From the IMG/VR virus record IMGVR_UViG_3300012944_000007: DNA of 55,208 nt; one strand, given 5' to 3'. The stretch comes from a virus. The notes under the pieces were generated by a model that was not told where the DNA came from, searched no databases, and saw only the letters and a list, made by a program, of their open reading frames with translations. The translations under genes and the position numbers were made by a program. Every line of letters begins with the position of its first letter. The stretch's first letter is position 1. This document shows positions 1-55,208 of this stretch, piece by piece.

Positions 1-123
1 ACCGTTGGCCCACGGCTTAGGCTATGGCGTGGGGTTGGCTATGTCTATACCTGCCGCGCTTTCTGGCTCTGCCATCCGAACCATGTAAATCATTGTAGCA
101 TAAGGCTTTAGTAGGTGCAGCAC
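1..123. repeat. Terminal direct repeat, identical to 55086-55208. The contig closes on itself, giving a unique length of 55,085 bp.
   Basis: Read directly. Both ends run accgttggcccacggcttaggctatggcg...ctttagtaggtgcagcac. Confidence 0.95.
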
Positions 124-18960: not shown

Positions 18961-18990
18961 GGCTCATTTTGACATTTCCCATTGGAAACC

Positions 18991-19218
18991 CGCTGGTTCC
19001 TCCTGGCCTGCCGTGCCTCGCCGCGCCCAGCCCAGCCGCGCATTGCCGGAACTTGCAAACATCCCGTTCGTGCCATTGGCACCCTCGCCTCGCCGTACCC
19101 TGCCCTGCCCGGCCTTGCCTGACCGAGCCCGACCATGCCCCACCCCACCTGACCTGACCCAGCCTTGGCCTGCCTGACCGAGCCGAGCCTGACCCGACCT
19201 TGCCCTGCCCTCGCCGCA
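18991..19218 (-). repeat. Intergenic element copy E: about 27 phased CCNNN (+ strand) pentamers 19083-19218, box palindrome 19070-19082, extra short array about 18999-19038
   Basis: I parsed the pentamers by hand and they stay in phase. Confidence 0.85.
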
Positions 19219-19241
19219 AACCTTACGAAATGAATTCTCAT

Positions 19242-19329
19242 GTGCCATTGGCACCCTCGCCCTGCCATACCTCGCCTCGCCTCGCCACACCATGCCCACA
19301 CCCTGCCAGGCCTCGCCTCGCCGTACCGA
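19242..19329 (-). repeat. Intergenic element copy D: palindrome 19242-19254 plus about 15 pentamers
   Basis: gtgccattggcac is followed by cctcg ccctg ccata cctcg cctcg cctcg ccaca ccatg .... There is one 1-nt phase slip near 19300. Confidence 0.85.
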
Positions 19330-19343
19330 AATCACAATCCCGT

Positions 19344-19446
19344 GTGCCATTGGCACCCTTGCCTCGCCGTACCATACCCAACCTTGCCTAGCCGCACCCC
19401 GCCACGCCTAGCCCCACCGGGCCTTGCCGAGCCCGACCGGACCAAA
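19344..19446 (-). repeat. Intergenic element copy C: palindrome 19344-19356 plus 18 in-phase pentamers
   Basis: ccttg cctcg ccgta ccata cccaa ccttg cctag ccgca ccccg ccacg cctag cccca ccggg ccttg ccgag cccga ccgga ccaaa. Confidence 0.85.
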
Positions 19447-19451
19447 CTTCT

Positions 19452-19946
19452 TCAGGCCTCCCGAATCATTTTCGGTTTTGGCAGAGACTTTACCGGCGCC
19501 AGGTCTATCGCCAAATCTTTTCTGGCAGTGTTCAGCGCATCCCTGATCGCGTTGGCGACGCGCTCCTGGTGATCCAAACGCTGCTGCCCCGTGCTGTCCA
19601 ATCTCGTTCGGTCGACCCATACGAAGGTCTTCACCGCATTGCCGGTCTGCTTGATCTTCTGCCGGGTCCTGATCTCAGCGTGAGCTAGAATTTCCGCCGG
19701 GCCCAGAACCTTTACGCCCACCGACGTCTCCCAGGTCATGAAAATTCCGTTGGTGTTTTTCATGCTATTGATCCAGGAGTTGATGACTCCGTAGTAGCGC
19801 TGCCCGCCCCTCTTCGCCTTCACGATTTCTTCTAAGTCGGCATGTTCAATGACTCGCCCTTCGGCGAGCATCGGCACCGGGAAAGCATCCTTCAGGCGGT
19901 TCACGTCAACCGCGTAGGGAATGCCGCCGCGAAATCCATGACTCAT
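19452..19946 (-). CDS. Hypothetical protein (164 aa), visibly lower GC than its flanks
   Basis: ATG at 19946 preceded by AGGAGG. The box palindrome ends 18 nt upstream. Confidence 0.7.
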   Translation of the reverse strand: MSHGFRGGIPYAVDVNRLKDAFPVPMLAEGRVIEHADLEEIVKAKRGGQRYYGVINSWINSMKNTNGIFMTWETSVGVKVLGPAEILAHAEIRTRQKIKQTGNAVKTFVWVDRTRLDSTGQQRLDHQERVANAIRDALNTARKDLAIDLAPVKSLPKPKMIREA

Positions 19947-19964
19947 AACTTCCTCCTTTCATTT

Positions 19965-20062
19965 GTGCCATTGGCACCCTCGCCCTGCCCAACCATGCCG
20001 CACCGCGCCCGGCCTTGCCAGGCCAGGCCCAGCCCGACCCTACCGCGCCGAGCCATGCCTTA
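19965..20062 (-). repeat. Intergenic element copy A: palindrome 19965-19977 plus 17 in-phase pentamers, the last containing the stop codon of 20060..20728
   Basis: cctcg ccctg cccaa ccatg ccgca ccgcg cccgg ccttg ccagg ccagg cccag cccga cccta ccgcg ccgag ccatg cctta. Confidence 0.9.
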
Positions 20063-20728
20063 ACTCACAATCTTCGCCTTGAACGTCCCGAACGGTCCCG
20101 GAGTCTTAGCGCTCGGCCTCCAATCTCCAAGACCCTTCAACCTTCCCGAGATGTCGAGAATACTAGCGACCACATCATTGGTGATCTGATCGTCGATGAT
20201 CATCAGTTCACCTCTCGTACTCCAATCGTCAAAACGCGGCCGGACTCGGATATGTTTGTTATTGCCGACTCTTGCGCGTTTGACAAAGAGAGAGAAGCCC
20301 AGCGCCTTAGCGCCCTCGACCTGGTCCGGGAAACGGGGGACCTTCAATAATTGATTGATATCCTCCATTCGCACCGGCTTCTTTTCCCCATTGATTAGCA
20401 AAGGCCAGTGAAATTTTTCGCATAGAATGCCGCTCTGGCTCAGTTCCTTAAAGGTCTTCCGGCCCTTGCCGGTCGGTACTTCCGCTGCGCCTCCCATGAG
20501 GCACCGCATGATGTATTCGGATGGAACGGTCACGACGCCGGTCTTCGGATCATCGTAGTTTAGGCACCCGAGCCACCTCCAGGCGGGAGTTCTATCGTCT
20601 CCTGGCTTTGACTTACTCTTGTTCTTGGGATCGTTCTTCCAGTCTTCCATCTTGTCTGCCCAGTCGATGTTATCCGCGTGCATTAAGAGCGGCATTTCGC
20701 TGGTAAGTTCCACTTCAATGGTTCTCAT
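20060..20728 (-). CDS. Hypothetical protein (222 aa), the lowest-GC gene in the early arm by eye
   Basis: ATG at 20728. It is flanked on both sides by the intergenic element. I recognise no family. Confidence 0.7.
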   Translation of the reverse strand: MRTIEVELTSEMPLLMHADNIDWADKMEDWKNDPKNKSKSKPGDDRTPAWRWLGCLNYDDPKTGVVTVPSEYIMRCLMGGAAEVPTGKGRKTFKELSQSGILCEKFHWPLLINGEKKPVRMEDINQLLKVPRFPDQVEGAKALGFSLFVKRARVGNNKHIRVRPRFDDWSTRGELMIIDDQITNDVVASILDISGRLKGLGDWRPSAKTPGPFGTFKAKIVS

Positions 20729-20759
20729 AGTTGTTGTTTCTGCCCTTCTTAGTTGATTT

Positions 20760-20917
20760 GTGCCATTGGCACCCTCGCCTCGCCGTACCCTGCCCTGCCC
20801 TGCCCTGCCCTGCCCGGCCGTGCCGTGCCCAGCCGTGCCACACCCTGCCCCGGCAAATTAAAAACCTTCTTTTCAAAAAACCCTGCCGAGCCCTGCCTCC
20901 GCCTGACCTCGCCGCGC
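20760..20917 (-). repeat. Intergenic element copy B: palindrome 20760-20772, 16 in-phase pentamers 20773-20852, an AT-rich 27-mer, and an array remnant 20881-20917
   Basis: cctcg cctcg ccgta ccctg x5 cccgg ccgtg ccgtg cccag ccgtg ccaca ccctg ccccg. The sense strand carries GGGCAGGGCAGGGCAGGGCAGGG. Confidence 0.9.
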
Positions 20918-20939
20918 TGGTGTCATCGCCATCGCGGTT

Positions 20940-37788: not shown

Positions 37789-40700
37789 TCAACTTAAACT
37801 CGTCAACGGCTCCAACATGTTCGAGGCTTGCGACACCCGGCTGTCTCCCGCCCGGGTGGCGGAAGCGTTGGCGGAAGCAACCGCCGCGGGGTTCTGCTGC
37901 ACCGCCTGTACCACCCGGCCCGTGAATAGATCGTTGGCCTGCTGCGGATTCAGCTGCATGAAAATACTGCTCACCTGCCCGCCGGCTCCCGGCACGCCCT
38001 GGCTGGTGCCCGCCATCAGCCCCTGCGCGGCGGTGACGGCGGTCTGGTATTGGTAGGTGGTCGGGCCGGTGTAGGGATTCTGCACCAGCACGCCGCCCTG
38101 ATAGACCGGCTGGGTGGCGAGGCCTCCCGCCTGCGACTGCGCGATGGTGGCGGCATACATGGGCCGCGGCAGGTTCGCCGCTTGCCCGGTCGAGAGGGCA
38201 TACAGCCGCACGATGTCTTGCACGTCCTGGGACCGGATACCGATCGTCACGCTGCCGCCGTACTTCTGATCCACGATCTGCTGGATCTGGGTGAGGATCT
38301 GGCGGTTGGAGATGTCGATGCCGTAGACCTGCTTGATGCCGGTGCGGATCCGCTCTTGCTCGGTATGCACGAACAGGCGCACAATGCCTGTGATCGCGCC
38401 CACCCCGGCTCCGATAGCCGCGCCGATGGCGGTGCCGAGTCCGGGCAGGATCATGGTGCCGATGCCCGCGCCCGCCAGTGCGCCGCCGCCGATATCCATT
38501 GCGAGGCCAGTGCCGCCGCCGCGCTGGAACCCGCTGGCGAACAACCCCAGGCCTGCGCCGGTCGCCGCCGCCGCGCCGATGCCAAGGCCGACCCCGCCGG
38601 GCATCTCACTGGCGCGCGCGATCATACTCGGATTGGTCAGAAACATCCCCGCGCCCGCCAGCGCGCCGCCCGCCACCGTCGCGGGTGCGTAGTGCTGCTG
38701 CAACCCTTTGCTGGCCAGTCCCATGCCTGCCATTAGCGCCAGCGTGCCCGCTGCCGGGGAGGTCAGGATGCTGCCGGCCGACGTGACTCCCTTGCCGTAG
38801 ATGCCGAAGAACTGCCCGAGCTTCGAGAGATTCTGTATGTTCAGACCCGCCAGATTCACTCCGCCCGCGCCCGTGGTGGCTCCTCCCGCCTTCAACGCGC
38901 CGGTTAGCAGGGGCAAGAGGGACGGACTCAACCTTTGCAGTGCCGTGAGACCCATCGGCAGGTTGGCCAGTTCCGCCACGCTGGGCCCGGTGACGGCTCC
39001 CGCGCCTTCCGCCTGAAAGCTGGGCACACCTGGCAGAAACAGTGGCTGGGCGCGCTGCGGCAACGCTGCCAGTTGAGCCATCGTAACCGCGGGAGCGCCC
39101 CCGCCGCCAGTGGCCGCGAGATAGCGGGCGTCCTCACCGCCAGGAAGGAGATCGGCGCCACCGCCACCAGCCGCTTCGGGTGCCGCTGCCATCAGCTGCG
39201 TGATGCGGGCGACGTAGGCCTTAGTCTCCGCGGGCAGCGCACGACCGGAAGCCAACCGTTGGTCTAAAGCGTGCGCGCCCATGTTGTAAGCCGCCAGCGC
39301 CAGCGGCACATTGCCGTGGTAGCGGGTGAGCATCTCCTGCAGGTGTTGTGCGCCGCCCATCACGTTTTGCCCGACATTGAACACGTCGGTCACGCCGTGT
39401 TCGCGGGCCGTCCCGGGCATCAACTGCATGAGGCCCATTGCGCCTGCGGACGAGACGGCCCCCGGTCTCATACTGGACTCGGCTTGCGCCACGGCCCGCA
39501 AGAGAGTCTGCGGCACGCCGGTGGCCCCGCTGGCTGTCTGAAAGGCCTCCTTCATGGTGGTGGTGGTATCCGCCATGCGGTCGGCGCTGCCCTCATGCTG
39601 CACGGTGGCGCCGGCGAAGTTGTTGACCGCCTCCGCGAAACGGATGGTGGCGTCGGAGTAGGCGTTGGTAGCGATCTCGTAGCTGTGCGTGCTGTTCTGA
39701 AACGCGCTGGCTACCGGGAACGAGATGTCGCTCTGCGTCGCGTTGATCTGCTGCACGTCTGGCGGCGGCAGGGGTGGCCGCGGCGGCATCCCGCGACGCA
39801 GCAGGGTTCCCAGGATCCCCTGCCCACCCCTGCCCAAGCTTTCCTGCGGCTGCCCATAACCTGCCGCTGCGGTGGCCACCCCTGCCAGTTGGCTGGCGAA
39901 TAGCTCCTTGGCCTCGCCCAGCACCAGTTTTTTGAAGAAGTCCCCCAGTGCCTGACCGAGGCTCTTGGTCTTATCGGTGAACACGTCGAACAGTTGGCTG
40001 AACTGATCCTTGAAGGCGTCGTACACCCGCTTCTGGTCTTCGATGATCAGATCGTTAGCCTTCTTCCACCCTTCCAGCCGGTATTTCTGCCCCTCGTCGA
40101 ATTGCTTCCTGGTCACCGCCGCTTCCTTATCGTCGGTTTCTTTGCGGTGGGCCTCGATCATCTTGTCCACGTCCACGCCCGCTGCGGCGAACTGCTTGCG
40201 GTAGTCGTTGGCCATCTTCTCGAAGCGGTGGAATTGATCCTCCAGGTTGTTGTTTTCGATGTCCGCAACCTGCTTCGCGGCGTCCATGCGGATCTGGGTG
40301 ATGCGGTCGATGTTGCGCACCTTGCTGCGCAGATCCTGAGCGTCCTGCGCCTCGATGTAGGCCACCTGCGCGTCGGCCGCTCCCTTGGCGCGCTCCACCT
40401 GATAGCGGGTGAATTCGTCCTCCTGCTTTTTCTGCTCCTTGAATTTCGCCCCCGCCGTCTCGGTCACTTCGGCACCGACCAGGATGGCGCGCAGTGCCTG
40501 CTGCTGGGCCTGCGGAAGGAGTTTGATCTTTTCCTCCAGTTCGCTGAAGAGGGTCGCGTATTTCAGGCGCACCGCCTCGACCGGCGAGGCCAGCGCTTCG
40601 AGTAAACTGCGCTGCGCCGCATCAGCGTGTTTCTGTTCCTCCAGACGGAGTTTCTCGAACAGCTTGGCGGTGTCGAGGATATCGCCCGGTTCGATCTGGC

Positions 40701-41949
40701 CCCCGCCCTTGAAAATCCCGGCCATGAACTTCTTGCCCTGTTCCGCCAGGCCGGTCAGGGCCGTTTTAATCTTGCCGGCCACCCCGCCGACCAGGGTATC
40801 CACCATCCCTTGGAATTGCGGGATCAGCTTATAGGCGGCAAAGGCCAACGTGCCGAGCAACACCACCGTAATGGCCAGTTGCGGGTTCATGGTCGCCAGT
40901 CCCACCGTGAACTTGAAAATCGCCGCGGTGAGACTGAGCAGCGGGCTGGCTAGACTAGTGACAATGGCGAGCGCAGTGCCAAGGGCCGCGACCGCCGCCG
41001 CCCCAGCCAAGACTTGGAGGATCACCAGCTTCGTGGGATCCGGCAGTTTCATCAGATAGTCGAGCAGACCGCCGAGCGGCGCCAGCAGGTTGCCGATCTC
41101 AGTGCCCAACTTCCTAAGCGCCGGTCCAAAGCCCTGTGGCCCGAACAGCTGGCTGACCGCGTTCTGAGCCGCGTCGGCCATATTCTTGAACGCCAGCGCG
41201 GCGTCGGCCAGCGAAGCACCGAAGCCGCCGGCCTTCCGCATGGAGTCGAGCACCACGCGGATGGTTTGCAGCGGGTCCAGAATGCCTTCCTTAATCGCGT
41301 CCCGAACTCCCTCCACGTCGATGGCGCGGCCCAGCTGCTTCGACATGGCCTCGCGCAGCGCGGTCATCACCTGCACGCCCTGCTGCGGCAGCGCCCGCAT
41401 CAGGTCCATTGCTCCGACGAAATCCTTTTCCATGATGCGACCGAAGAGGCGCACCACGTTGTTGACGTTCTCAATCGAGCCGCCCATGCGGCCCACCTGG
41501 TCGGTGATCACGCGCAGCGTGTCGGGCACGTTTTTGGCGGCCATGCCGAAGCCGAGCAACTGGCGCGCCGTCTCTTCCAGATCCTTGAACCGGAACGGGC
41601 TGGTCGCCGCGATCGCGCGCACCTGCTCGAAGACCTTGTTAGCCTCTGCCGCGCTCCCCGTGAACGACTGCATAGCCAACTGCGTGCGGCTCAACTCGGC
41701 AGACATCTGCACCATGCCGGCGATCACGCGCGCGATCCCCAGTCCTGCCAGGGCAGAGGTCAGCTGCGAGAACTCCCGGTTGACGCTCTGAATCGAGACG
41801 CCGATGGACTGGAAGCCAGCGGTGGCCTGTTTGGAACTTTTCTCTGCGGTGGGGCCGGTCGTGGCAATCGACTGATTGAGGGCGTTGACGTTCTGCTGCG
41901 CGGTCTCGCTGTTGAAATCGACTTGGAGGTAAATCGTGTTACTGGCCAC
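37789..41949 (-). CDS. Tape measure protein with an internal lytic transglycosylase (SLT) domain
   Basis: 1386 aa with Ala/Gly-rich helical repeats. The SLT motif ...AQAESSMRPGAVSSAGAMGLMQLMPGT...AAYNMGAHAL is encoded around 39258-39495. Confidence 0.85.
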   Translation of the reverse strand: MASNTIYLQVDFNSETAQQNVNALNQSIATTGPTAEKSSKQATAGFQSIGVSIQSVNREFSQLTSALAGLGIARVIAGMVQMSAELSRTQLAMQSFTGSAAEANKVFEQVRAIAATSPFRFKDLEETARQLLGFGMAAKNVPDTLRVITDQVGRMGGSIENVNNVVRLFGRIMEKDFVGAMDLMRALPQQGVQVMTALREAMSKQLGRAIDVEGVRDAIKEGILDPLQTIRVVLDSMRKAGGFGASLADAALAFKNMADAAQNAVSQLFGPQGFGPALRKLGTEIGNLLAPLGGLLDYLMKLPDPTKLVILQVLAGAAAVAALGTALAIVTSLASPLLSLTAAIFKFTVGLATMNPQLAITVVLLGTLAFAAYKLIPQFQGMVDTLVGGVAGKIKTALTGLAEQGKKFMAGIFKGGGQIEPGDILDTAKLFEKLRLEEQKHADAAQRSLLEALASPVEAVRLKYATLFSELEEKIKLLPQAQQQALRAILVGAEVTETAGAKFKEQKKQEDEFTRYQVERAKGAADAQVAYIEAQDAQDLRSKVRNIDRITQIRMDAAKQVADIENNNLEDQFHRFEKMANDYRKQFAAAGVDVDKMIEAHRKETDDKEAAVTRKQFDEGQKYRLEGWKKANDLIIEDQKRVYDAFKDQFSQLFDVFTDKTKSLGQALGDFFKKLVLGEAKELFASQLAGVATAAAGYGQPQESLGRGGQGILGTLLRRGMPPRPPLPPPDVQQINATQSDISFPVASAFQNSTHSYEIATNAYSDATIRFAEAVNNFAGATVQHEGSADRMADTTTTMKEAFQTASGATGVPQTLLRAVAQAESSMRPGAVSSAGAMGLMQLMPGTAREHGVTDVFNVGQNVMGGAQHLQEMLTRYHGNVPLALAAYNMGAHALDQRLASGRALPAETKAYVARITQLMAAAPEAAGGGGADLLPGGEDARYLAATGGGGAPAVTMAQLAALPQRAQPLFLPGVPSFQAEGAGAVTGPSVAELANLPMGLTALQRLSPSLLPLLTGALKAGGATTGAGGVNLAGLNIQNLSKLGQFFGIYGKGVTSAGSILTSPAAGTLALMAGMGLASKGLQQHYAPATVAGGALAGAGMFLTNPSMIARASEMPGGVGLGIGAAAATGAGLGLFASGFQRGGGTGLAMDIGGGALAGAGIGTMILPGLGTAIGAAIGAGVGAITGIVRLFVHTEQERIRTGIKQVYGIDISNRQILTQIQQIVDQKYGGSVTIGIRSQDVQDIVRLYALSTGQAANLPRPMYAATIAQSQAGGLATQPVYQGGVLVQNPYTGPTTYQYQTAVTAAQGLMAGTSQGVPGAGGQVSSIFMQLNPQQANDLFTGRVVQAVQQNPAAVASANASATRAGDSRVSQASNMLEPLTSLS

Positions 41950-42906
41950 GCGCCGCCCTCTCCGCCGCTTCCGCGTGGAAGCGGTTCCGCTCCTCGCTCA
42001 GGAAGCGGAGCAACAAAAACTCCGGGTAGGTGATGTCTTGGAGGCTAACGGTCACCCCCGCTTGCATTGCGAAATCCAGGTCGATGGTGAGGCCTATCAA
42101 CCGGCCTGCTGGGGTCGCTAGATATTCGTCCAGCAGCGCCAGCGGGCATTCGTCGCACGGCGGGGAGTTGGCGTCCGCGAAAGGATCGCGCATCAGTGCC
42201 TCGGGGCATTCGCCAGAACCGGGGCACAGTTGGTCGCGGCGGAGCATTCGGTGGAGGATAAACCTCGGCGAAGGTTGAGCCGGCCAACCCCCGCCCGCTA
42301 AAAATTTTCTTCGCCATAACTCGCCGCTGTTTCCCGCTCGATTTCGATAATGACCTGGCGGATCACCGAATCCTTGTGGAGAATCGGCACCGCGCCGGCG
42401 TACCCGTCCGCTTTCCCGCCGCAGGCATCCCACAGCGCCGCCGCCGCTTCCATGCTGGTGCGGACCTCCTGGCAGTTGTACGGTAGGTTTAGGTAGCGCG
42501 TCGTACGGTGCAGCTTGCGCACCTCGTCGAGGGTCGGGATGCGCACGGTGTGCGTCACCCGGCCCGTCAGGATTTGCAGCTCGGCCTCCGCCTCGTCCGC
42601 ACCTAGATCCACCCGCAGCACGTCGCACTTGCCAATGGCCTGGATAATGGTCGTGGCTTCACCCGCAGTCAAGGGAGGCGCGCCGTTGAGCTTGATGGCT
42701 TCATACATCTTCTGGTCGGCAGCGCTGGAGTCGGTCTCCATTTCCGAAGCGCCCCGGCCCATCTGGCGCATCATCAACTTGCTGCGCTTGCGGTGCATGG
42801 CCCATTCCTCGTCGGAAGGCCAGCGCACGGTAATGTCGGTCTTCCCTGCGCCAGCCACGCGCAGCCCGATGGTAATGGTTGCAGCGGTATCAAACATCGA
42901 TTTCAT
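41939..42906 (-). CDS. gpGT-like tail assembly chaperone fusion made by a -1 frameshift
   Basis: The -1 frame is open from the slippery site to 41939, adding 122 codons (KFLAGGGWPAQ...). It ends 11 nt inside the tape-measure gene. Confidence 0.6.
42298..42906 (-). CDS. gpG-like tail assembly chaperone
   Basis: Positioned immediately upstream of the tape measure. AGAGG SD. It ends ...GEENF* on the slippery heptamer. Confidence 0.65.
   Translation of the reverse strand: MKSMFDTAATITIGLRVAGAGKTDITVRWPSDEEWAMHRKRSKLMMRQMGRGASEMETDSSAADQKMYEAIKLNGAPPLTAGEATTIIQAIGKCDVLRVDLGADEAEAELQILTGRVTHTVRIPTLDEVRKLHRTTRYLNLPYNCQEVRTSMEAAAALWDACGGKADGYAGAVPILHKDSVIRQVIIEIERETAASYGEENF
42301..42307 (-). other. 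Programmed -1 ribosomal frameshift heptamer A-AAT-TTT (X XXY YYZ)
   Basis: Sense reads GGC GAA GAA AAT TTT TAG. Shifting -1 gives AAA TTT TTA GCG GGC..., which is the frame of ORF 41939..42628. Confidence 0.6.
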
Positions 42907-42930
42907 CCTCTATAATTGTGAAGTCCATTA

Positions 42931-43031
42931 GGGCTTGGCTGGGCCTGGCGTGGCAAGGCTCGGCACGGCTGGGCATGGCTAGCCATGGCTGGGTTTGGCG
43001 CGGTGCGGCAAGGCGAGGGTGCCAATGGCAC
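42931..43031 (+). repeat. Intergenic element copy F (inverted relative to the others): 18 phased NGGCN pentamers 42931-43020 overlapping the box palindrome 43019-43031
   Basis: gggct tggct gggcc tggcg tggca aggct cggca cggct gggca tggct agcca tggct gggtt tggcg cggtg cggca aggcg agggt, then gccaatggcac. Confidence 0.9.
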
Positions 43032-43034
43032 ACA

Positions 43035-43073
43035 GGAAGGCGCGAGAAATAACCCACCGCGCCTTCCATTTTT
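43035..43073 (+). terminator. Plus-oriented intrinsic terminator/attenuator hairpin between element F and the plus-strand gene
   Basis: ggaaggcgcg (43035-43044), a 13-nt loop, cgcgccttcc (43058-43067), then atttttg. The stem is a perfect 10 bp. Confidence 0.65.
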
Positions 43074-43147
43074 GCAGATTGCGTTTTGCATCGGCGTATC
43101 CCCTTCATCCGGCTGCACTTAGCGTATTCCGGTACAATGGTACTGGT

Positions 43148-43738
43148 ATGCACAGATTCATATTTATTGTCCTGATCGCCGCAGGCGCGGGTTACTGGTT
43201 CCGGCTGGAGCGCCCAACTGCCTACAACTCCGGCCGAGCGGCTATGGTTCCTGTTCCCGCCGCTCCTCTGCCCGCTGCCAAGGAACCGGATCAAGAGGCT
43301 GCGCAGCCAGAACCGGAGCAGTGGAAACACGGGGGCGCCCGCGACGATCTGGATGGGACCGAACAGCGGTTCGCCACGCTGCGGTCTACCAATCTTGTCG
43401 AGTTTCCTTTCCCTTACAACGGGCCGCAGCATGGCACATTGCGAGTGAGCGAAGAGAAACCGGGCCTCTTTATCTTGTCCCTGCATCTGGAGCGTGGCCA
43501 GTTCATTGGGGATTGGAAAAGCTACGGCATAGTGTGCCCTTTGCGCGTTCGCTTCGATGAAGGGCCGGTCCAGAATTTCACGATGCTCCGATTCGATGAC
43601 CAGACCAACGCGGCCTGGACCGGGCAATCGGAATTGATCGCTCAATTGCAGACTGCAAAGCGGGTACGCATTCAAGCGCACTACTTTGAGGCGGCGAACG
43701 TGACCCTCGACTTTCATTGGGACGAATTTCCCTTCTAG
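43148..43738 (+). CDS. Membrane-anchored moron protein (196 aa), opposite strand within the tail module
   Basis: ATG at 43148. It has an N-terminal hydrophobic anchor MHRFIFIVLIAAGAGYWF, then a Pro/Glu linker and a beta-rich domain. It converges on the tube gene with a 2-nt gap. Confidence 0.65.
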   Translation: MHRFIFIVLIAAGAGYWFRLERPTAYNSGRAAMVPVPAAPLPAAKEPDQEAAQPEPEQWKHGGARDDLDGTEQRFATLRSTNLVEFPFPYNGPQHGTLRVSEEKPGLFILSLHLERGQFIGDWKSYGIVCPLRVRFDEGPVQNFTMLRFDDQTNAAWTGQSELIAQLQTAKRVRIQAHYFEAANVTLDFHWDEFPF

Positions 43739-43740
43739 CC

Positions 43741-44832
43741 TCATAGCCCCAGGATTCCGTCCTTCGTGGTGGTGGCGCTCATGGTGATGATGGGCGTGAT
43801 CCCGTCGGTCGGTTGCAGCGCCGTGACCCCGCACTGCACGGTGACGATGTTGGCGTCGTCGCCATTGACCACCGCCTGCATGATGGTGCGCGGCATCGAG
43901 ATCGTGAAATTGTGGTAGAAGGTGGTGTCGATTAGCGCCCCCTTCACCCCGAAGCTCACCGGCCCTTCCACCTGATTGATCAAGTTGTTGTACTCTATGC
44001 TGCCTTTCTGCGCGCGGGCCACGAAATTCAAACTCATTTCGCGGACGCCGTATTCCATGCGGCCTCGCACGCCGAAACCGTTTTGGGTGCCCGAGCCGGG
44101 ATATAGCCCGGTGTCGAGCCGCACGTTGTTGTTGTAGCGAAACTCCAGGCTCATGAAGGTCTGCTGAAGCACGTAATCAATGCCGTTGATGGTAATGAAA
44201 GCACCCGAGGCGTTCAGGAAGTGCTCCGGCGTGAGCGCGGGCAGCGGCGACAGGCCGGGACTCTGCACGCGCCCCGACCCGGGAAGCGTGCAGGCCACCC
44301 GGCAGTTGGCGCGCCCCGGCCCGCTGGACATGGTCAGCGCCCAGTCGCCCACCACACAGCCGATCAGCGCCCGGTCTACTACCGAATTCGGGGAAGGCCG
44401 GATCTGCTCGTCCCAGGTGAAGCACGGCAGATTGATGCAGGTAACCGCGGGATCGTTGGGCACGGCCGCATAGGCGAAGCCGGTTCCGGCCACGGTCTTG
44501 GTGGCTTGGCCGGTTGTGAAACAGAACAGCCAGGCGAGGAACTCACTCGAGACGTACTTTTCGAGAGCCACGCTGGTGTCCTGATGCGACGGGAACGTCT
44601 GGCTGGGGAACTCGTTACCCTTGCCGATATCGAGCGCGTTGGTTTCGTTGACCGGATTGACCACCGACAGGGCCGGATTCACCTTGGTCAGCGCCCACAT
44701 GTCGGCAAGCGCGTTGATCGTCGGCACGTCCGTCTGCGGCTTGTAGCCGAACGCGATTCTGGTCTCCTGAATATTCGCCGGGCAGGAGATCGGTCCTCCT
44801 GCCAGCGGCGCGGGAGCGGTTAAGGTTGCCAT
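43741..44832 (-). CDS. Putative major tail (tube) protein
   Basis: ATG at 44832 lies 9 nt after GGAGGTG. The position matches lambda V. 363 aa. Confidence 0.5.
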   Translation of the reverse strand: MATLTAPAPLAGGPISCPANIQETRIAFGYKPQTDVPTINALADMWALTKVNPALSVVNPVNETNALDIGKGNEFPSQTFPSHQDTSVALEKYVSSEFLAWLFCFTTGQATKTVAGTGFAYAAVPNDPAVTCINLPCFTWDEQIRPSPNSVVDRALIGCVVGDWALTMSSGPGRANCRVACTLPGSGRVQSPGLSPLPALTPEHFLNASGAFITINGIDYVLQQTFMSLEFRYNNNVRLDTGLYPGSGTQNGFGVRGRMEYGVREMSLNFVARAQKGSIEYNNLINQVEGPVSFGVKGALIDTTFYHNFTISMPRTIMQAVVNGDDANIVTVQCGVTALQPTDGITPIITMSATTTKDGILGL

Positions 44833-44854
44833 CGGTCGAATCACCTCCAAGGGT

Positions 44855-55085: not shown

Positions 55086-55208
55086 ACCGTTGGCCCACGG
55101 CTTAGGCTATGGCGTGGGGTTGGCTATGTCTATACCTGCCGCGCTTTCTGGCTCTGCCATCCGAACCATGTAAATCATTGTAGCATAAGGCTTTAGTAGG
55201 TGCAGCAC
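55086..55208. repeat. Second copy of the terminal repeat (identical to 1-123)
   Basis: Identical by direct reading. Confidence 0.95.

Follow-up and report, generated by a model that had tools for sequence, protein, structure and literature searches.

The tail genes of the phage recorded in IMG/VR as IMGVR_UViG_3300012944_000007 lie on the minus strand, and between the tail tube gene and the candidate gene for the tail assembly chaperone there is an insert on the plus strand that combines a phased pentamer array, a short box, a strong hairpin and a gene for a 196-aa protein (ORF196). The locus raises the question of what the array and its hairpin are for: a leader of the gene that follows, an RNA in its own right, or a remnant. 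The window analysed is the whole stretch of 55,208 nt, and all positions are its coordinates. The answer proposed here, at a rough probability of 0.72, is that the segment 42911-43073 (+) is a self-contained gene for a guide RNA (vrRNA) of the VIPR system, lying 22 kb from the vipr gene of the same genome and aimed at the tape-measure start of sibling phages without VIPR.

VIPR, a weapon of phages that resembles CRISPR, was described in 2026, mostly in enterobacterial and Pseudomonas phages. Its phage-encoded Vipr proteins, which are ancestral RAMPs, polymerise on vrRNAs made of GGY/NN pentamers and an invariant 3' tail, with one protomer per unit, so that the GGY is hidden and the NN exposed. 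The NN dinucleotides read double-stranded DNA, one base being skipped per unit. Published arrays typically have 9-16 units and at least 4, and the threshold for natural targets is an NN match of at least 80% (bioRxiv 10.64898/2026.04.26.720920, 10.64898/2026.04.26.720927).

The distal array and the gene it matches

The distal array keeps a strict 5-nt register, in phase with the box that follows it, and 16 of its 17 pentamers carry GGY, unit 11 having GCC instead. It runs from GGCTT in the first unit to GGCGA in the last, and its NN dinucleotides spell TT TG CT GT AA TC AC TG AT TA AT TG TT GC GC AA GA. The pattern GGCNNGGCNNGGCNNGGC, with at most one mismatch, has 62 matches in the window against 2.9 expected and a maximum of 9 per shuffle. 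The box itself, GGGTGCCAATGGCAC (43017-43031), occurs in six exact copies in the window and folds into a hairpin with a free energy of -7.0 kcal/mol. The earlier note on this DNA, made from the letters alone, had held that only here does the element point rightward, which is borne out by the single plus-strand copy against five on the minus strand (starts 19084, 19256, 19358, 19979 and 20774).

Three nucleotides past the box, the stem arms GGAAGGCGCG (43035-43044) and CGCGCCTTCC (43058-43067) are followed by an A and then TTTTT (43069-43073). The perfect 10-bp stem and T-tract that the earlier note had reported are thus real, with a free energy of -19.8 kcal/mol for the hairpin; a GC-rich stem and a U-tract are what defines an intrinsic terminator, and 43035-43073 is a predicted one with an unusually large loop. 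The consensus terminator scan did not list it, because its 13-nt loop exceeds the 8-nt limit of that scan. On the minus-strand side no U-tract follows the stem, so the hairpin would not stop late transcripts. At the other end of the element, TATAAT has just three copies in the 55 kb, both strands counted; no convincing -35 hexamer was found for the copy at 42911, and the consensus promoter scan called no promoter there. Array, box, hairpin and TATAAT all lie where the earlier note had placed them. An Rfam scan of the element, at gathering and at permissive thresholds, returned no family, and blastn against the INPHARED phages gave no match. C makes up 45% and G 25% of the array's antisense strand. 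An array binding RNA-associated proteins of the TRAP or Hfq kind, G-quadruplex tracts and Rho utilisation were considered as the primary function, and were superseded by the Vipr match and the decoded targets described below.

The code was read by joining the NN units with one wildcard each and scoring every position on both strands, against nulls made of shuffled guides. The sibling set consisted of 31 loci retrieved through the tail-tube protein (390 kb scored), and each distal-guide comparison has 34 informative positions. The best score was 30/34 (L043), followed by 29/34 at two loci (L032, L050), 28/34 at two more (L031 and L048, the latter being genome G037) and 27/34 at a further seven. 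All these matches fall at one homologous place, the start of the tape-measure gene, where the site MAANNIYIQVDFNSQ consists of the start codon and 15-16 further codons. With 1000 unit-shuffled guides, the top score over these 390 kb averaged 21.1 and was never above 24, and skip rules of 0, 2 or 3 nt gave the distal guide at best 20-21, against 30 with a skip of 1 nt. The skipped bases are codon third positions at the sibling sites, as in published natural targets, so that synonymous drift in rivals would leave the match intact. Two of the siblings are complete genomes with direct terminal repeats, G037 (52,037 bp, scoring 28) and G038 (54,439 bp, scoring 27), and neither contains a GGY/NN array or a vipr gene.

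Within its own genome, the phage's highest-scoring site is its tape-measure start, which matches at 23/34, or 68%; this is chance level (shuffles 21-25) and below the 80% cut-off. In the phage's own metagenome-assembled genome (MAG), no guide target rose above shuffles under skip rules 0-2, and 36 other genomes of the genus to which it was binned hold no distal-guide site at three or fewer mismatches. Taken at the level of sequence, the distal code specifies the tape-measure start of the VIPR-less siblings and not the phage's own allele. The same decoding rule was calibrated on a second array of the genome, vrRNA2 (19965-20059, minus strand), which matches positions 458-504 of locus L076 (IMGVR_UViG_3300047160_026011) at 31/32 with the skips on the wobble position; the matched gene encodes a GpA-family terminase large subunit, 39% identical to the phage's own. 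Sub-pattern scans with vrRNA3 and vrRNA5 found no target, and a 33/50 match of vrRNA5 in L012 was judged to be chance, its matching positions being scattered.

The proposed mechanism would begin with a transcript of about 150 nt that starts a few nucleotides past the TATAAT and ends at the hairpin and its U-tract. The earlier note had suggested a discrete small RNA of that length; the element does look like one transcription unit, but its identity as a vrRNA had been missed. Following the published mechanism, Vipr protomers (encoded at 20060-20728) would polymerise on the 17 units, one on each, hiding the GGY and exposing the NN, which would then read the double-stranded DNA of the siblings' tape-measure start with one base skipped per unit. 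The vrRNA's partner would be the target's coding (non-template) strand, and either DNA strand is reported to serve as a VIPR target (bioRxiv 10.64898/2026.04.26.720920, 10.64898/2026.04.26.720927). The filament would keep transcription of the sibling's late operon from entering the tape-measure gene and the tail genes downstream of it, so that a co-infecting, superinfecting or co-resident sibling would be unable to complete its tail. The phage's own allele would be spared, since it differs from the guide at 11 of the 34 informative positions. The setting could be superinfection exclusion by a lysogen or competition in a mixed infection, and the distal guide is probably used to silence rivals.

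Features of the window discussed in the text, ordered by position (+ and - give the strand)
Feature	Position	Strand	Basis or remarks
Main-locus vrRNAs, array and tail	18975..20849	-	vrRNA1 20760-20849; vrRNA2 19965-20059; vrRNA3 19344-19443; vrRNA4 19242-19327; vrRNA5 19070-19209; variant-tail copy 18975-19047
164-aa gene between vrRNA2 and vrRNA3, candidate accessory (vap)	19452..19946	-	role suggested by position only
vipr gene, RAMP-family effector, 222 aa	20060..20728	-	match to PDB 36pp_D; phrog_4652
Own tape-measure gene	37789-41949	-	Pfam TMP_3 and SLT
Own tape-measure start, MASNTIYLQVDFNSE	41903..41952	-	GTG at 41949; homologous to the sibling target; 23/34
Tail assembly chaperone candidate	42298..42897	-	named by position between tube and tape measure; no family match
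Candidate -10 hexamer TATAAT	42911..42916	+	15 nt 5' of the first repeat unit; putative promoter role
Distal vrRNA guide region, 17 GGY/NN units	42932..43016	+	register, enrichment over shuffles, match to sibling target
vrRNA 3' tail, GGGUGCCAAUGGCAC	43017..43031	+	5-bp stem, AAU loop; identical in 6/6 vrRNAs of the genome
Intrinsic-terminator-like hairpin and A-UUUUU	43035..43073	+	10-bp perfect stem, 13-nt loop
Moron promoter-like block, ATCCCCTT..GCACTTAG..TACAAT	43095..43147	+	conserved in siblings; TACAAT at 43133-43138, 9 nt before ATG
196-aa moron gene (ORF196)	43148..43738	+	N-terminal membrane helix, Pro/Ala-rich linker, beta-rich domain of ~140 aa
Tail tube protein gene	43741..44850	-	Pfam Phage_tube_2, E 2.8e-11

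The resident VIPR locus

The identity of the distal RNA is tied to a VIPR locus in the same genome. The product of its vipr gene matches the PDB entry named 'SUSP1 Vipr protein' with an E-value of 1.3e-11, and the alignment with SUSP1 places H17, the RP motif (R138) and the G-loop GDWRP (D177-W178-R179) in register. The SUSP1 residues at these places are reported as those that grip the pyrimidine and both guanines (bioRxiv 10.64898/2026.04.26.720920, 10.64898/2026.04.26.720927). A single-sequence AlphaFold2 (AF2) model of the window's Vipr had a pLDDT of 30, too low to confirm the fold. In five viral loci that are independent of one another (L008, L009, L011, L012 and L025), Vipr homologues with 39-66% identity adjoin arrays that end in this tail, and one of these loci, L012, has the layout of the window: vipr, a vrRNA, the 164-aa gene, three vrRNAs, a 122-aa gene and a serine integrase. 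The 164-aa gene occupies the same position there with 68% identity, and its product has no family or PDB match. The arrays of the window span 15-25 units, and the NN codes differ among all six arrays with the exact tail. As far as its letters can tell, the distal element carries every sequence feature of a vrRNA from this resident system.

The tail stem varies in other VIPR loci (GTACC/GGTAC, GCGCC/GGCGC, GCACC/GGTGC and GGACC/GGTCC); because the search required pairing, these two-sided changes show compatibility and not a rate. Within the window, the minus-strand copy at 18975-19047 has eight units, a different linker and a variant tail, GGGTTTCCAATGGGAAAT (TTTCC-AAT-GGGAA), whose stem contains one G-U pair, which favours an RNA hairpin. 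The 122-aa gene and the serine integrase come right after this copy, which could be a seventh vrRNA that has diverged or is decaying. Just upstream of vrRNA1, at 20880-20925 on the minus strand, there is an out-of-register GG-rich tract, GGCGAGGTCAGGCGGAGGCAGGGCTCGGCAGGG, with TTTTTT at its end; it could be what is left of an array, or mark where the upstream transcription unit stops.

The tail was also seen in very different contigs. A 388-kb viral contig (L008/L013) and a 234-kb one (L015/L016), both of lower GC, have the identical 15-nt tail extended to GGGTGCCAATGGCACATTTACAAATCAAGAG and GGT-rich arrays with up to nine tandem vrRNAs, in two separate loci each, so that dispersed vrRNA loci are not unique to this phage. 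Two chromosomal elements, in a Pirellulales MAG (L029:413-437) and a Planctomycetales MAG (L023), consist of about three GGY units and the exact tail; in L029 a strong hairpin and a T-tract follow the tail, as in the tail-terminator layout of the distal copy. Both elements are possibly vrRNAs that have degenerated, and could point to planctomycetes as hosts.

The ends of the window (1-123 and 55086-55208) overlap by about 123 bp, and a MAG contig (C280) is a circular permutation of it, which together indicate a complete phage genome of about 55.08 kb and not a prophage with host flanks. No related prophage was found in 36 genomes of the binned genus, and the host assignment drawn from the bin is therefore uncorroborated.

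The moron slot and the competing explanations

Several points weigh against a functional guide gene aimed at siblings. The candidate promoter consists of a -10 hexamer alone; one array unit is degenerate (GCC); and the transcript ends and the Vipr loading of the distal vrRNA are predictions. The perfect target is absent from the searched collections, where the best match is 30/34, and exact sub-pattern scans of IMG/VR and metagenomes gave no better target, chance matches reaching 22-24/34. Units 4, 12, 16 and 17 each mismatch one base at all or nearly all sibling sites. Of the 31 sibling loci, only five clear the published 80% cut-off, with seven more at 79%. Both this threshold and the mismatch tolerance were, moreover, calibrated on systems (SUSP1 and P. 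fulva) in which Vipr is no more than a distant relative of the window's. A second copy of the distal guide core was found in none of the searched collections, the guide being unique to this genome. The lower match to self, finally, may reflect ordinary divergence, at about 67% nucleotide identity in the region, and not selected escape.

Many of these points would also be expected of a dead or decaying vrRNA cassette that was left in the hot spot, with the tape-measure match as the relic of a past target: the absent perfect target, the mismatches that recur in the same four units against nearly every sibling site, the GCC unit, the weak -35 and the restriction of the cassette to one genome. Decay would, however, have had to leave 16 of the 17 GGY units and the terminator intact, the 15-nt tail identical to the five copies beside vipr, and a guide that still matches five sibling loci at 82-88%, above the published cut-off. 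It is the strongest of the alternatives, and yet an unlikely one.

Less probable again is an RNA directed at the phage itself, which would tune its own late operon by weak binding or act as a decoy that competes for Vipr. The best site in its own genome is indeed the tape-measure start, only 1 kb from the guide gene, and satellites have been shown to encode solo vrRNAs by which Vipr is drawn away to decoy sites (bioRxiv 10.64898/2026.10.15.759431). The 23/34 match there is, however, about what shuffled guides reach (21-25) and well under the published 80%; the siblings match far better than self, and the MAG contains no multi-copy decoy site.

The order of promoter, array, hairpin and open reading frame on one strand, with the hairpin 75 nt before the ATG, suggests yet another explanation, which the earlier note had offered: an attenuating leader of ORF196, in which transcription from the TATAAT would stop at the hairpin or read through it. 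The history of the slot speaks against this. The gap between the tube and chaperone genes measures 834-847 bp in the window, and the segment 42898-43744 has no counterpart in G037 and G038, where the two genes are 6 bp apart. Tube and chaperone abut in 20 of the 31 sibling loci, and in nine others a gap of 417-540 bp holds one opposite-strand cargo gene (L030, L032, L033, L037, L038, L043, L049, L051 and L058). The cargo consists of small membrane-anchored or secreted proteins of at least three families, so that the membrane-anchored moron recognised by the earlier note between tube and chaperone has found its counterparts. The cargo genes are preceded by a conserved block (ATCCCCTT...ACTTAG...TAnAAT, then 9-11 nt and the ATG), and short-BLAST matches of the window's own block at 43095-43147 were obtained in L038, L033, L030 and L032. 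The sibling cargo genes together with this block identify the slot as a moron hot spot.

Between the chaperone start and this promoter-like block, the vrRNA unit forms an extra insertion of about 197 bp (42898-43094). It is found in none of the siblings, and those that carry slot cargo, including L058 with its ORF196 homologue, have neither array nor hairpin. Since the promoter-like block of ORF196 lies downstream of the hairpin and the siblings do without the insertion, the evidence argues against a leader or attenuator and favours two units that are independent of each other. There is also no array near the closest homologue of ORF196 elsewhere, minimum-free-energy and centroid folds show no pairing that would compete with the terminator stem, and a vrRNA accounts in full for array and tail. 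An attenuating leader is thus a shade less probable even than a self-directed RNA. The least credible proposal is that of a DNA-level element (a protein-binding array, a promoter or a sigma-54-like site), for which the box offers a TGGCAC, a nearly palindromic sequence and several copies 18-35 nt before start codons, but its NN code matches foreign genes under the RNA-guide rule, and the stem variants keep their pairing, one of them (TTTCC/GGGAA, 18975-19047) through a G-U pair, as an RNA would. The idea that the box holds a promoter, of the sigma-54 or another kind, was rejected, the TGGCAC being present and the conserved -12 element after it absent.

The preferred reading, a vrRNA gene independent of its neighbour, leaves ORF196 as a moron of its own. 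It is the only non-shadow plus-strand open reading frame between about 27 and 54 kb, in agreement with the earlier note, which had singled it out as the only plus-strand gene of the late arm and had given it an N-terminal anchor (a helix is predicted at residues 3-17). By its codon-position GC pattern, this helix and a confident AF2 model (pLDDT 86), it looks like a real gene. Its GC content at third codon positions (GC3) is 0.66, against about 0.8 in late genes. The C-terminal domain of about 140 aa, with conserved W59, D66, FPY and GQ, represents a large family that is uncharacterised, with 1582 remote homologues at E-values up to 0.001, and members of this family often have N-terminal zinc ribbons. 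The protein belongs to no Pfam, PHROG or NCBIfam family, a profile search of PDB sequences found nothing and Foldseek against the PDB gave no match at E <=0.001. Its nearest homologue elsewhere (P0002) stands in an unrelated context with no array nearby. A role at the surface or envelope, for instance in superinfection exclusion, is a guess. On the preferred reading, ORF196 is an independent moron in the same hot spot and is not functionally coupled to the vrRNA.

Some details of the slot and its surroundings deserve mention. Several cargo genes have near-identical first codons (ATGCACAAATTCATA, MHKFI...), and in L033 and L038 a truncated MHKFI mini-ORF is retained ahead of the real gene, which suggests that recombination inside the common 5' end exchanges cargo. 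For the flanks of the vrRNA cassette, no similar sequence was found elsewhere. The gap of about 830 nt described by the earlier note is real, but the chaperone start that bounded it is likelier to be 42897 than 42906: the start of the longest frame, 42906 (MKSMFDT), is likely to be an error, the alignment with relatives begins at MFDT, with the ATG at 42897, and an AGAGG Shine-Dalgarno sequence lies 8 nt before that ATG. This minus-strand ribosome-binding region and the plus-strand TATAAT overlap. The antisense stretch that late transcripts must cross, which the earlier note had thought Rho-sensitive unless antiterminated, has its like in the nine siblings that tolerate 417-540 nt of untranslated antisense sequence in the same slot. 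Further along, ARAGORN reported a 'tRNA-???' with a four-base anticodon at 38102-38194 (+), antisense within the tape-measure gene, which is almost certainly a false positive.

Novelty and relation to known systems

Descriptions already exist of VIPR, of its code and of solo vrRNAs. What is new is the high-GC environmental phage lineage with a short hairpin tail in its VIPR; the vrRNA that, on the sequence assignment above, stands 22 kb from vipr as a unit of its own, which a VIPR-positive phage carries in its tail operon; and the predicted target class, the tape-measure start of siblings with the self allele spared. A VIPR-positive phage can, on this reading, keep an extra guide far from vipr, in the moron slot of its tail operon, and a codon-phased guide would give siblings no escape through wobble changes. 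For annotation, 5-nt-phased GGY arrays anywhere in a phage genome, and not only beside vipr, should be decoded as guides. A more speculative idea, doubtful at present, is that autonomous vrRNA mini-cassettes of about 200 bp (promoter, guide, tail and terminator) insert into moron hot spots, their guides perhaps being made or selected beside the homologous region. If this were true, single guides could be added or swapped without touching the vipr locus, and the position of this guide, 1 kb from the copy of the targeted gene that the phage itself carries, could even mean a primitive route of guide acquisition, undescribed for VIPR so far.

The closest known system is the type II VIPR of SUSP1 (PDB 36pp), which is likewise carried by a phage, with a small RAMP-family Vipr whose GGY-contacting residues are conserved, GGY/NN pentamers with an invariant 3' tail, 1-nt-skip targets in rivals and no self-target at or above 80%. 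The two differ in the tail, which is a pseudoknot of about 40 nt in the SUSP1 clade and a 15-nt, 5-bp hairpin in the window, and in the arrays, which have 9-16 units in published systems and 15-25 here. The window, moreover, has one vrRNA 22 kb from vipr, on the opposite strand, within the tail-gene operon and with its own -10 hexamer and terminator, and its accessory gene (164 aa) matches no known family.

Virus-borne mini-CRISPR arrays serve conflicts between related archaeal or bacterial viruses. The distal element resembles them as a minimal viral guide unit that matches close relatives and not self, and that would exclude siblings. The mini-CRISPR arrays, in contrast, are built of repeats and spacers and work with Cas proteins, the effector being that of the host, whereas the window has a pentamer code, a Vipr filament and a virus-encoded effector.

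Solo vrRNAs, known from F5 satellites and VIPR-null SUSP1-like phages, share with the distal element a single vrRNA with the consensus tail, placed away from vipr-vap and aimed at a competing mobile element (bioRxiv 10.64898/2026.10.15.759431). The carriers of published solos have no vipr and borrow Vipr (bioRxiv 10.64898/2026.10.15.759431), whereas the window genome has its own; since vipr lies in the same 55-kb genome, the element is better called the distal vrRNA of a VIPR-positive phage than a solo by the strict definition of Lopez et al. 2026. The targets differ as well, the published ones being REP decoys, vipr genes, other vrRNAs and satellites (bioRxiv 10.64898/2026.10.15.759431), and the one predicted here the siblings' tape-measure start.

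With phage morons in general, the locus has in common an opposite-strand insert between the tube and chaperone genes, its absence from 20 sibling loci and a lower GC3. It departs from them in that one of its two inserted units would encode an RNA guide and not a protein.

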